A stretch of DNA of 64,000 bases, taken from assembly GCA_963835625.1 (NCBI GenBank), contig CAWIGO010000002.1, forward strand, positions 8,116 through 72,115. Reading direction: 5' to 3'. How positions within the stretch are numbered: position 1 is the stretch's first letter; the number at the start of each line of letters is the position of its first letter. The DNA comes from an uncultured Verrucomicrobiae bacterium. GTDB taxonomy: Bacteria; Verrucomicrobiota; Verrucomicrobiia; Limisphaerales; UBA11358. The notes under the pieces were generated by a model. The model was given only the letters and a program-made list of their open reading frames with translations, had not been told where the DNA came from and did not search any database. Of the stretch, positions 10,383 to 13,482 are shown piece after piece. Both the position numbers and the translations under genes were made by a program.

Positions 10383-11831
10383 ATGGACGACACGAATTCA
10401 TTGATCGAACAACGCAAGGCCAAGCTGACCGCGTTGCGCGCCAAGGGCATTGACCCGTTCAAAAATAAATTCACGCCCGGCGAAACCTGCGAGCATGCGC
10501 GCGACCATTACGCCGAAGGCCGTGAAGTCGCCATTGCCGGTCGCATTACCGCGCACCGCGAGATGGGCAAAAGCATGTTCATTGACGTGCGCGACCAGAG
10601 CGGACGCATCCAGGCTTACGCGCAGAAAAATGTCCTCGGCGACGAGCAATTCGACATCTTCCGGCATCTCGACCTCGGTGATTTCATCGGCGCACGTGGA
10701 CATTTGTTCACAACCAAAACCGGTGAAATTTCCATCAAGCTCGCCAGCTTCACGATTCTGGCCAAGGCGTTGCGTCCGCCACCGGCGAAATGGTATGGAC
10801 TTGAAGACACGGAAATCCGTTACCGCCAACGTTATCTCGATTTGATGGCGAATCCAGAAGTGAAGGATGTTTTTTTCAAGCGCAGCCAAATCATCGCCGA
10901 GATCCGGAATTTTCTACATTCGCGCGGCTTTGTGGAAGTCGAGACACCGATGATGCAGGCGATTCCCGGCGGCGCGGCGGCGCAACCGTTCAAGACGCAT
11001 CACAACGCACTCGGCTGCGATTTTTATCTGCGCATTGCGCTGGAACTTTACCTTAAGCGTCTGCTTGTCGGCGGTGTGGACAAGGTTTTCGAGATTGGCC
11101 GCATCTTCCGCAACGAAGGTTTTTCGCGCAAACACAATCCCGAATTCACGATGTTGGAACTCTATCAGGCCTACGGCGATTACGAGAGCATGATGGAACT
11201 CATGCAAGGCATGGTCTGCCACGTTGCGCAAAAAGTTTTGGGCACGCTGAAAATCGAAACCAAAGACGCCGGGGGCAAGGTCACCAAAACAATTGATCTC
11301 ACGCCGAACTGGAAGCGTGTGAAATACAAGGATCTTGTGCGTGGAAAAGCGGGCGCGGATTGGTTTGACGTTTCACCAAAGGAACGGCACGAGCGCGCAA
11401 TCAAACTCGGCGCAGAGATTGCGAAGGACTACGAAGATTTTGAAGTCACACAGGCCGTATTCGAGAAGCTGATTGAACCAACACTTATCAATCCGACGTT
11501 TGTGACACACGCGCCGAAGGAATTGATTCCACTCGCCAAACTTTCACCCGACGATCCGACGACCGTCGAAGTTTTTGAGTGCTGCATCAACGGCCAGGAA
11601 ATCGCGCCTGCTTACACCGAACAGAACGACCCGATTGAGCAGCGCGAACGGCTGGAGCATCAGGCCGGCGGCGAGCAGCAAAAGCTGGATGAAGATTTTC
11701 TTGTCGCGCTCGAACATGGCATGCCTCCGGCGGGTGGCATGGGCGTGGGCATTGACCGTTTGTGCATGATGCTGCTCGGTCAGGAAAGCATCCGCGACGT
11801 GATTTTATTCCCGCAGTTGAAGCCAAAATAA
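10383..11831 (+). CDS. lysS: Lysine--tRNA ligase (class II)
   Basis: 482 aa with class II motifs ([33 protein letters not shown]). Confidence 0.95.
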   Translation: MDDTNSLIEQRKAKLTALRAKGIDPFKNKFTPGETCEHARDHYAEGREVAIAGRITAHREMGKSMFIDVRDQSGRIQAYAQKNVLGDEQFDIFRHLDLGDFIGARGHLFTTKTGEISIKLASFTILAKALRPPPAKWYGLEDTEIRYRQRYLDLMANPEVKDVFFKRSQIIAEIRNFLHSRGFVEVETPMMQAIPGGAAAQPFKTHHNALGCDFYLRIALELYLKRLLVGGVDKVFEIGRIFRNEGFSRKHNPEFTMLELYQAYGDYESMMELMQGMVCHVAQKVLGTLKIETKDAGGKVTKTIDLTPNWKRVKYKDLVRGKAGADWFDVSPKERHERAIKLGAEIAKDYEDFEVTQAVFEKLIEPTLINPTFVTHAPKELIPLAKLSPDDPTTVEVFECCINGQEIAPAYTEQNDPIEQRERLEHQAGGEQQKLDEDFLVALEHGMPPAGGMGVGIDRLCMMLLGQESIRDVILFPQLKPK

Positions 11832-11842
11832 GCTGTTAAATT

Positions 11843-12499
11843 TCAATCTTCCAACCATTCAATAATTTCGTGATCTCTACGCATATCAAATTTGGCGTAA
11901 TCTTCTCTTGAAGCATCGAATCCGTATTTCAAATGATACATAAGTGATTTTCCGTCTTCCGGATCATGTTTAAAACACACCTCATACCAAACTGTTTGCA
12001 AATTAAATTGCTGATGGAATACGTTCATAATTCCACGAATGAGTGCAAGCGCAGCTGTGATTTCTGAAAATTGAATCGTTGGCAAAGGGATTTCCTTCAT
12101 CTGCCTTAAGAGGTCGTTGTGCGCTATTTTCTCGTCACGCCAAGTTTTGACGGCTTTCATTTTCCCTTTGAGTGCTAAAATCTGTTGTGACACCTGACTT
12201 TGCAGACTTGCATCTTTAATTTCTAACACGAGATTATCAAACGACAGATTTTCTTTGACGATTGATTTAACTTTTGTTTTAGGTGGGTCTGTCAGCCTAG
12301 CGATGGAAAGAAGAATATCAAACAGCATTAAATTCCAGAGGTAGCCGAAAAATACTGGCGCTGTTTCATTCAACAATTTCACCTTCCTATCGCTGCCAAA
12401 AACCTGTTTGAAGTGTTTCCACTTGTAGTGCAATCGCACCACTTCAGCGTCAATGGCTTTGATCTTATTTTTAAGTGTGTCTGGCATATTGGCGGCCAC
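11843..12499 (-). CDS. HEPN-domain protein, AbiU2-like
   Basis: 218 aa, helical, with an R-x5-H motif (WRDEKIAHND). AT-rich. Overlaps the upstream GIY-YIG gene by 29 nt. Confidence 0.55.
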   Translation of the reverse strand: MAANMPDTLKNKIKAIDAEVVRLHYKWKHFKQVFGSDRKVKLLNETAPVFFGYLWNLMLFDILLSIARLTDPPKTKVKSIVKENLSFDNLVLEIKDASLQSQVSQQILALKGKMKAVKTWRDEKIAHNDLLRQMKEIPLPTIQFSEITAALALIRGIMNVFHQQFNLQTVWYEVCFKHDPEDGKSLMYHLKYGFDASREDYAKFDMRRDHEIIEWLED

Positions 12500-13310
12500 G
12501 TTTTAGAGTTACGCCCAAACGTCGTAGGCGACTCGATATGCCATGATGGTCTATGTTAAACAACCGCCCGATTTCGCGGCACGATTTGCCTTCTGAATGT
12601 AATTTTAGACAGGCCTGATCCATTTCTTCTGCACTATTAAAACCTAAAGATTTTCTGTTAAATTTTTCAAAATAGATTTTTCGAAGCCCTGCGGTTCTCG
12701 ATGGTAACTTTCTAATTTTATCCAAAAGCTGAACCAGCGGGTTGTAAATTTCTGGACGTTTGAGGGCTGCTGTAAAACCAGCTATGCGCTTGGCTTCATT
12801 TTCCGGCGAATGCAACCATTTTTGCGCGTTCTTTCTCCATTCTGGATTTTTTGCATGACGTTGTTTCAGTGCTTCAGAAACTCGCTTGTGAGTGTCAGGC
12901 GTCCATACGCCTCTGCGATACCCACGAATTTTCTTCTTCTGTGATTCGGTCCATTTGTAACCGCGGGTTGATTCTGCTTTTGGCGCAGAATTGAAGTTTC
13001 TCGTGTAAGCATGGAAATGATCCATCCAGAATTGTTCCCGTTCATCTAACCGTTTGCTCTCGCCAACCTTTTCCAACAAAATAGCTGTGAAAGCTCCTTG
13101 GCCATATTTGTTCCATGCTCTTTGCAAATGTCTTGAGTGATGTCGTTTTGCTAGAAGCGCCCGTAAATGCTGGTTGAGCCGCTTCCGAACAATTTTCGAG
13201 CTGCCAACATAGATTCTGCCACTGGCATCGTGCCGGATGCCATAAACGCCACAACATTGGAAATCAATTGATAAGCGATTGTTGAATATGCTTTCAATTA
13301 TTCCGAGCAT
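12471..13310 (-). CDS. GIY-YIG homing-type endonuclease (I-TevI/Seg-like architecture with a C-terminal HTH)
   Basis: GVYGI...RIYVGSS, conserved R (KRLNQHLR), E (REQFWMDHF), and a C-terminal HTH (SCREIGRLFNIDHHGISSRLRRLG). Confidence 0.8.
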   Translation of the reverse strand: MLGIIESIFNNRLSIDFQCCGVYGIRHDASGRIYVGSSKIVRKRLNQHLRALLAKRHHSRHLQRAWNKYGQGAFTAILLEKVGESKRLDEREQFWMDHFHAYTRNFNSAPKAESTRGYKWTESQKKKIRGYRRGVWTPDTHKRVSEALKQRHAKNPEWRKNAQKWLHSPENEAKRIAGFTAALKRPEIYNPLVQLLDKIRKLPSRTAGLRKIYFEKFNRKSLGFNSAEEMDQACLKLHSEGKSCREIGRLFNIDHHGISSRLRRLGVTLKRGRQYARHT

Positions 13311-13342
13311 GGTAGAAGTTTAAGAATTGAACGTGGAATTTA

Positions 13343-13482
13343 AAGTTTTTCTCGTCGCGCTCGAACACGGCATGCCACCGGCGGGTGGCATGGGCATGGG
13401 CATTGACCGTCTTTGCATGATGCTGCTCGGCCAGGAAAGCATCCGCGACGTGATTTTATTCCCGCAGTTGAAGCCGAAATAG
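13343..13482 (+). pseudogene. Detached second copy of the lysS 3' terminus (last ~45 codons plus stop)
   Basis: About 129/141 nt identical to 11691-11831 by hand count. Encodes [44 protein letters not shown]-stop. Confidence 0.9.

Follow-up and report, generated by a model that had tools for sequence, protein, structure and literature searches.

A free-standing homing endonuclease gene that travels with a replacement for the end of the gene it invades is the favored explanation for an unusual arrangement in the DNA of an uncultured Verrucomicrobiae bacterium. The stretch analyzed, 64,000 nucleotides of contig CAWIGO010000002.1 and referred to here as the window, contains lysS, the gene for lysyl-tRNA synthetase (LysRS), followed by an insert of foreign DNA and then by a second copy of the last 140 nt of lysS. 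On the strand opposite to lysS, the insert encodes a GIY-YIG nuclease and a HEPN_AbiU2 protein. We assign a probability of roughly 0.6 to the reading that this is the cassette of a homing endonuclease, which carries HEPN as cargo and supplies a gene terminus of its own. A first-pass annotation of the same DNA, made from the letters alone, had proposed a homing-like mechanism that duplicates the gene end rather than inserting an intron. That proposal is partly supported. In outline it agrees with the existence of an empty site and with the recurrence of such cassettes at the ends of aminoacyl-tRNA synthetase genes, but it needs amending in that both window copies are mosaics, in that nuclease-free cassettes display the same duplications, so that the nuclease may not be their cause, and in that the mechanism has a precedent in fungal mitochondria.

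The window lysS (10383-11831, plus strand) encodes a class II enzyme of 482 amino acids, with a Pfam tRNA-synt_2 match at E=7.7e-88 and an OB anticodon domain. It is intact and presumably functional, and can be aligned over its full length with lysS of a cassette-free relative (locus L115) at 91.8% nucleotide identity. A direct repeat of 139-140 nt links the end of this gene (11692-11830) to positions 13343-13482, the two being 93.5-94% identical. Copy 1 (11692-11831, plus strand) is the functional lysS terminus, containing motif 3 (GGMGVGIDRL) and a TAA stop, and copy 2 (13343-13482, plus strand) is a lysS 3' fragment that has been displaced, lacks a promoter and runs on into the native downstream flank. 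From F439 onward they differ in eight codons, seven of them synonymously (counting the stop, TAA versus TAG) and one non-synonymously, GTG valine versus ATG methionine within the class II motif 3; a stop is kept in both. The recurrence that the first-pass annotation had put at about 92% identity, with one amino-acid change, is thus upheld at a slightly higher figure. Because the repeat is the longest within the 64-kb window and a second lysS 3' end is absent from all 80 lysS loci examined in other species, a chance repeat is excluded. The genome-wide rate of local direct repeats proved a poor discriminator as a control: unrelated loci have about 3.5 of them per 100 kb, most being protein-internal.

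Between the two copies lies an insert of about 1.5 kb (11832-13342) whose GC content of 0.36-0.46 contrasts with 0.55-0.62 in the flanks and which holds two overlapping minus-strand open reading frames (ORFs), for the GIY-YIG and HEPN proteins; composition and Pfam matches thereby bear out what had been described from inspection as an AT-rich insert with an antisense nuclease and an R-x5-H HEPN gene. Its left edge had been placed 11 nt past the lysS stop, which has to be corrected: homology to L115 ends at 11830, foreign DNA directly follows the stop, and the 11 nt (11832-11842) form a spacer that separates the lysS stop from that of HEPN. The right edge is formed by a conserved region 5' of the nuclease gene (13311-13346, minus strand) with a TAAACT box (13317-13322) that precedes the nuclease ATG by 6-7 nt. 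Some 40 nt ahead of the nuclease gene are conserved across the window and loci L002, L005, L007, L009, L010 and L016, and at this edge homology between the window and L002 reaches 13350. This region with its TAAACT box is a probable promoter, possibly one giving rise to a leaderless mRNA.

Comparison with relatives lacking the cassette reveals the empty site. Such sites were located by a LysRS protein search followed by contig look-ups, and five contigs (L115-L119) encode a LysRS that is 97% identical, with no cassette and a single lysS end. Their order is yebC, 100 nt, lysS, an 80-nt hairpin, a convergent gene for an extracytoplasmic function (ECF) sigma factor, and Metal_resist. Window positions 7935-8809 correspond to 4175-5048 of L115 at 92.7% identity, 10381-11830 to 4999-6448 at 91.8%, and 13347-15469 to 6314-8439 at 95.3%. 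Relative to this naive allele, the 3' insertion duplicates the last ~136-140 nt of lysS, and a separate second insertion duplicates the lysS start. The hairpin, a bidirectional terminator between lysS and the ECF sigma-factor gene (13483-13556; an inverted repeat with 26-nt arms and a terminator-like match), directly follows the lysS stop in the naive contigs and in the window is parted from the functional lysS by the cassette. The cassette is therefore polymorphic for presence and absence, and the empty site of the relatives is intact. Since relatives with a 97%-identical LysRS show an empty site, the insert is, on this comparison, a discrete and recently acquired cassette. The host is a Limisphaerales-like member of the Verrucomicrobiota. 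The closest GTDB genomes (73% nucleotide identity) share no synteny with the window and are useless as empty sites.

The nuclease gene (12471-13310, minus strand; 279 amino acids) encodes an I-TevI-like catalytic domain, a linker and a putative C-terminal helix-turn-helix (HTH). Its product matches Pfam GIY-YIG (PF01541, E=1.6e-10) and the I-TevI catalytic domain in the PDB (1LN0/1MK0, E=1.6e-10), and its best matches in PHROGs and PADLOC are labeled homing endonuclease. Residues Y23, Y34, R44, H57/58, E92 and N107 align with the catalytic residues of I-TevI and are invariant or nearly so in 21 homologues. At the C-terminus, residues 236-264 match HTH_38 at E=0.006, which is below the Pfam cut-off; homologues carry precomputed HTH_23, HTH_28, HTH_38 or HTH_7 matches, some with a second HTH repeat. 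The ratio of non-synonymous to synonymous substitution rates (dN/dS) is 0.12-0.22, indicating purifying selection, which keeps the nuclease intact even in cassettes without HEPN. Judged by these features, the protein counts as a genuine I-TevI-type GIY-YIG enzyme maintained by purifying selection. An intron-encoded homing endonuclease was considered and rejected: between 8000 and 15000 no Rfam family, whether a group I intron or another RNA, was found beyond hairpin noise, and lysS is uninterrupted. The nuclease is thus free-standing, because there is no intron RNA around it. Degenerate copies also exist, frameshifted in L024 and damaged at the N-terminus in P0007, which fits with the homing-endonuclease life cycle. 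Viral contigs yielded only distant catalytic-domain matches of at most 42% identity, and the GenBank phage collection at most 39%.

Overlapping the nuclease gene is the HEPN_AbiU2 gene (11843-12499, minus strand), which spans 218 amino acids from a GTG and has its probable start at ATG 12487. It scores 70.8 bits against Pfam PF18734 (E=1.3e-19; cut-off 26.8), and its R117-x5-H123 motif, together with an N and a D, is invariant in four homologues; dN/dS is about 0.2. It thus shares the Pfam match and the R-x5-H motif with the lactococcal abortive-infection protein AbiU2, from which this HEPN-superfamily domain is known. Here it is coupled to a homing-type nuclease rather than placed within a recognized defense system: PADLOC returned no system-level match, only a weak one to Csm6. 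The gene is most likely a toxin- or defense-type passenger.

The nuclease family has about 25 close full-length homologues (43-87% identical), and these recur at gene ends. Close homologues (50-87% identity) occur at lysS 3' ends in four further lineages. Like the window with its 140-nt displaced fragment, L175 carries HEPN with GIY-YIG, 10-11 nt past the lysS stop, with no fragment seen within 1 kb; L002-L004, L007/L008 and L173/L174 carry GIY-YIG alone, with displaced fragments of 350-375 nt. At the 3' end of gltX, encoding glutamyl-tRNA synthetase (GluRS), HEPN and GIY-YIG lie 0-35 nt from the stop in L001, L010-L013 and L016, and L014 has GIY-YIG alone directly after guaA. A search for duplicated ends around the gltX-borne cassettes found none at nucleotide or protein level, and none was found for guaA in L014. 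Mixed cassettes in other or unknown contexts, to which a displaced fragment does not apply, are found in L005/L006, L009, L019/L024 and L020.

It is in these other loci that the cassette's own gene terminus is most visible. The functional lysS genes of L002 and L007 are chimeric: their G+C at third codon positions (GC3) is about 0.8 up to residue 295-300 or so and then drops to 0.3-0.45, as in the nuclease gene itself, over the final 1 kb or so of the gene. In the last 138 nt their functional ends share 90% identity, and their displaced fragments, host-like with a GC3 of about 0.8, are 94% mutually identical, whereas within one genome the functional end and the displaced fragment are only 78-80% identical. 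The displaced fragments (L002_f1 and L007_f1) are 87-93% like the window copies and the functional ends (f0) 76-81%. Furthermore, in both loci the nuclease ORF, lying antisense, shares 32 nt with the lysS stop region, so that the recoded terminus and the nuclease gene are physically one unit. In the window as well as in L002, L007 and L173, an imported C-terminal segment and a displaced native C-terminus flank the endonuclease ORF. Taken together, the functional lysS terminus appears plainly to be cassette-borne in three of the four further lineages. The suggestion in the first-pass annotation that the cassette brings a variant terminus therefore holds for three other lineages, on the foreign GC3 (0.41-0.45), the 90% likeness between hosts and the interlocking with the nuclease ORF; it does not hold in that form for the window, where both copies are mosaics. 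Similarly, the co-conversion tracts that it had advised looking for are clear in L002 and L007, where lysS has a cassette-like composition over about 1 kb, but no clear tract is present in the window, which has a mosaic of only ~75 nt.

Several observations on synthetase ends stand beside these. The foreign 3' part of the chimeric lysS genes (L002 5995-7917, encoding a LysRS of 640 amino acids; L007 5995-7794, 599 amino acids) contains an extra segment of 110-160 residues in the catalytic domain, dissimilar between the two loci and absent from the native 482-residue type. In another LysRS allele, P0123, the usual stop is absent and the protein runs on as AKAQEAPYG. GluRS relatives of L010 (P0241-P0360) have C-termini that are hypervariable after RIE(R/K)A, several with extensions of 100-130 residues (563-578 amino acids), which suggests frequent rearrangement at the gltX stop.

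For gltX itself, homology to the naive allele L172 breaks off 16 nt short of the stop, GC3 is 0.30 over the final 60 nt, and the three cassette-bearing genes share a K(L/S)(K/E)F(E/N) tail, while naive gltX tails are hypervariable. The window spacer, compared over 11835-11847 (GTTAAATTTCAAT), resembles the cassette-derived gltX tails of L010 and L016 (CTTAAATTTGAAT and CTTAAATTCAAT), a likeness that is short and weak and could be due to chance; the window cassette may once have resided at a gltX end.

The two window copies were compared at their nine differing sites in an alignment with naive L115, and each proved to be a mosaic. Upstream of 11745, copy 1 matches L115 at three of four differing sites and copy 2 looks like another lineage, resembling L002_f1. 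Downstream of 11760 the relationship is reversed, copy 2 matching L115 at all five sites and continuing into the native flank and copy 1 departing from L115 at all five, its own variants being mostly A or T. Both copies thus change parentage within the codons for G-V/M-G-I-D-R-L, and the crossover or break would lie at 11745-11760 in copy 1, equivalent to 13396-13411 in copy 2. That the switch points coincide within one 15-nt interval is suggestive only, because just nine sites vary. Such coincidence is what would be expected both from a break repaired from a donor that had the duplicated structure already and from a single reciprocal exchange with a circle made up of the cassette and one lysS end.

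The favored mechanism can be outlined as follows. The mobile unit, about 1.5 kb or 1,651 nt including one repeat, would be built around the free-standing I-TevI-type gene, with the HEPN/AbiU2 RNase-type gene as translationally coupled cargo. Its three parts would be the recoded terminus, the nuclease gene, alone or accompanied by HEPN, and the beginning of a displaced terminus. Taking part of the lysS 3' coding sequence along, the unit would enter a lysS 3' end by recombination inside the motif-3 codons, through a nuclease-made break repaired from a cassette-bearing donor or a reciprocal equivalent. One product would be an intact hybrid lysS, with a native body and a donor-derived last ~75 nt and stop; the other would be a promoterless displaced fragment, donor-derived in its first ~55 nt and followed by the native remainder and the native terminator. 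The lysS body would act as the left homology arm and the displaced fragment as the right one, pairing with the terminus of the recipient, so that the duplication is reproduced at each invasion. Since the duplicated end would also split or alter the target, a carrier would not be cut again. The chimeric lysS genes of L002 and L007 look like long co-conversion tracts under such a scheme. On this model the nuclease would cut naive lysS near the switch interval, the cut would drive the spread of the cassette and carriers would be immune.

The window and related loci also contain inserts of other kinds at gene ends. The START of lysS is duplicated as well (8707-8809 and 10328-10430; 49 nt coding at 88% identity plus about 55 nt upstream at lower identity) around a 1.5-kb insert (8810-10327) that has no nuclease gene and is absent from L115-L119. 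A DUF2142-like membrane-protein ORF (8648-10303) may use the old lysS promoter and start, because it is in frame with the displaced start codon at 8762. Farther along, a 140-nt direct repeat (83%; 26599-26738 and 27132-27271) runs from the end of an oxidoreductase gene through the intergenic DNA into tRNA-Leu, of which it covers the first ~37 nt. Its copies enclose 390 nt of AT-rich DNA (26739-27131) with a 62-amino-acid ORF (26892-27080) and no nuclease, and the complete tRNA-Leu (27232-27316) uses the second copy, as in a mirror-image, 5'-end version of the lysS case. A carB-like ORF (1432-2979, 515 amino acids) ends inside the oligomerization domain with its last 69 nt (2911-2979) recoded; its last 22 codons are repeated 31 nt downstream (3011-3079) in GC-richer form, with 20 of 22 residues and about two-thirds of the nucleotides identical, and an AT-rich island with an ORF6N gene (3222-3641) follows. 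The carB-like repeat may mark the place from which an end-replacing cassette has been lost. A hairpin-like, GC-rich repeat of 30 nt (93%) at 3109-3138 and 7870-7899, its copies 4.7 kb apart and flanking an AT-rich stretch, is probably a repeated terminator or an element of the repetitive extragenic palindrome type rather than an insertion boundary.

Outside the window, L002 has four lysS termini in a row (3277-4960 in the orientation of lysS, beyond the GIY-YIG cassette), the functional end being followed by fragments of 375 nt, ~47 nt and ~65-100 nt, with DUF4268, DUF433 and a 76-amino-acid ORF between successive fragments, an arrangement showing that cassettes were stacked one after another at a single gene end. 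L007 contains a second, older lysS fragment of ~135 nt whose boundary matches the -140 boundary of the window; no HEPN or GIY-YIG remnants were found in the older inter-fragment DNA of L007 or L002. In L009, the 3' end of a phosphoglucomutase-family gene is duplicated (3600-3701 and 4387-4488; 102 nt, 85%) around a ParE toxin gene and a putative antitoxin gene, 500 nt upstream of a GIY-YIG and HEPN cassette that is not at an aminoacyl-tRNA synthetase gene. A broader generalization for this verrucomicrobial lineage, possible if tentative, is that conserved ends of essential genes (lysS 3' and 5', gltX 3', tRNA-Leu, carB and the phosphoglucomutase gene) serve as portable homology attachment sites for integrase-free mini-cassettes. 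Each would bring its own replacement end, be stackable and make chimeric essential genes across species; the cargo would range over homing nucleases, HEPN, toxin-antitoxin genes and membrane proteins, with GIY-YIG an accelerator and not a requirement.

A number of these results weigh against the homing cassette. Nuclease-free cassettes in the window and in related loci are bounded by the same gene-end duplications, which means that duplication does not need a cis-encoded nuclease and that plain homologous recombination stays a serious rival. No target motif common to the lysS, gltX and guaA ends was found, local alignments being no better than those of shuffled sequences, and nucleases 85-87% identical sit at different genes. 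The mosaic is drawn from nine sites, with a one-sided Fisher probability of about 0.05 and a naive reference that is 5-8% diverged, and comparison of the window lysS with L115 in 90-nt bins (84% to 99% identity) shows no clear step and hence no clear co-conversion tract. Moreover, no displaced fragment could be detected in L175 or at the gltX loci. The first-pass annotation had counted the same cassette at other sites without duplicated flanks as evidence against homing, and this is found in part, since cassettes 62-87% identical lie at gltX ends and at the L175 lysS end with no detectable duplicate; the last codons of gltX have nonetheless been replaced, which fits the model of a cassette-borne terminus.

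The rival that draws most on these points requires no nuclease at all. Host recombination between donor repeats would release a circle made of the cassette and one lysS end, and a Campbell-type single crossover would insert it into a naive lysS, the gene end acting as a portable attachment site and the GIY-YIG and HEPN genes being mere cargo, for instance a two-gene defense module. The coincident switch points are as expected for one reciprocal crossover, cassettes without a nuclease (with the DUF2142-like ORF, the tRNA-Leu 62-amino-acid ORF, DUF4268 and DUF433 in L002, and ParE in L009) lie between duplicated ends, and repeat lengths that vary from 47 to 375 nt suit homology-driven rather than site-specific events. 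Recombination of excised circles could produce every one of these nuclease-free cases. This course of events is nevertheless less likely than homing, as it leaves unexplained why one nuclease family recurs at lysS, gltX and guaA stop codons in many lineages and why purifying selection acts on the nuclease even without HEPN. In addition, the import of ~1 kb against a displaced ~370 nt in L002 and L007 is better fitted by break repair with co-conversion than by a single crossover, and the GIY-YIG architecture is typical of site-specific homing enzymes, not of known defense effectors. A local tandem duplication of the lysS end, with foreign DNA captured later and the second copy decaying as a pseudogene, would account for two copies that are 94% identical and both GC-rich, and for a functional window end unlike the AT-rich cassette-borne ends of L002 and L007. 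It is improbable, however, because the 7:1 ratio of synonymous to non-synonymous differences (P=8e-4 versus neutral decay) implies that the copies diverged as working orthologues and not after a local duplication; their variants, set against the naive allele, fall into mosaic clusters, copies in related loci are of clearly different origin, and the fragment boundary near -140 recurs in the second fragment of L007.

Two other explanations are highly improbable. Strain variants of the lysS end could have been joined in one metagenomic contig, and indeed the cassette-plus-duplicate form of the window is known, in its exact configuration, from a single contig and its copies differ at the level of strain variants, which counts against the homing cassette too. 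Analogous architectures nevertheless come from several samples and pipelines (L002/L003/L004, L007/L008, L173/L174), the junction of the conserved cassette 5' region with the fragment is exactly that of L002, and a graph path from the cassette into lysS at -140 requires real junction reads. Direct repeats of a gene 3' end around foreign DNA are, for their part, the hallmark of an integrase- or transposase-mediated island with the lysS 3' end as its attachment site. The insert, however, holds only two ORFs, neither a recombinase nor a transposase, and no terminal inverted repeats were found in it; from locus to locus the repeats vary in length (140 versus 350-375 nt) and in boundary, and the position of the crossover or junction is not constant either.

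If the homing-cassette reading is correct, free-standing homing endonuclease genes are not confined to phages, introns and inteins but also enter bacterial chromosomes, where they settle at the ends of essential translation genes, and the host survives through the imported replacement terminus. The outcome would be chimeric aminoacyl-tRNA synthetase genes, with L002 and L007 having imported a whole foreign kilobase with an extra domain. This would be a route for the horizontal replacement of parts of core genes, with a bearing on phylogenies built from such genes. The cassette would also provide a concrete case of a defense- or toxin-type gene (HEPN/AbiU2) hitch-hiking on a homing element, and would link a fungal mitochondrial mechanism to bacteria. 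The nuclease would be a candidate new site-specific enzyme whose target region can be predicted to ~15 nt (11745-11760).

Among known systems, integrase-mediated islands occupy tRNA, guaA or lysS 3' ends; streptococcal integrative elements are found at lysS or guaA, and the ends of these two genes are known integration sites in other phyla. As in those islands, the element here supplies a replacement gene end that leaves the target intact, and direct repeats of the gene end flank the insert; unlike them, the cassette has no recombinase gene or fixed core site, and its repeat length varies. Phages offer a second comparison in the free-standing GIY-YIG homing endonucleases, the T4 Seg proteins, and in I-TevI. 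Shared features are the I-TevI-like catalytic domain with a C-terminal DNA-binding module (putative here), an intron-less intergenic gene beside a conserved gene, presence/absence polymorphism and, in L002 and L007, apparent co-conversion of the flank. To our knowledge, phage Seg and Mob genes normally leave no duplicated gene end, whereas the present cassette has a replacement terminus and a displaced fragment and sits in a cellular chromosome. Free-standing homing as such is described in PMC2790892 and PMC6083498.

A third group of elements, the mobile ORFs (mORFs) of fungal mitochondria, creates hybrid genes in Allomyces macrogynus atp6 and in Glomus atp6, atp9, cox2 and nad3, with Endoconidiophora atp6 and cob among further cases (PMC3630166, PMC6279837). 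According to PMC3630166, which cites Paquin et al. 1994, and to PMC6279837, the endonuclease of Allomyces atp6 has been shown biochemically to drive mobility. The literature searched, whose coverage is incomplete, yielded no description of such an element in bacteria, only in fungal mitochondria. In these mORFs a GIY-YIG or LAGLIDADG gene likewise has an imported in-frame C-terminal segment on one side and the displaced native C-terminus on the other, this native fragment is nearer to the genes of relatives than the imported one, differences are mostly synonymous and the outcome is a chimeric essential gene. The cassette departs from them in residing in a bacterial (Verrucomicrobiota) chromosome instead of an organelle, in targeting aminoacyl-tRNA synthetase genes, in having its nuclease on the opposite strand and not fused in phase with the host gene, in its HEPN cargo and in the way several cassettes can pile up at one gene end. 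By analogy, the best reading is that the window cassette represents a bacterial counterpart of the fungal mitochondrial mobile ORFs, with a mechanism that would not be new in kind.

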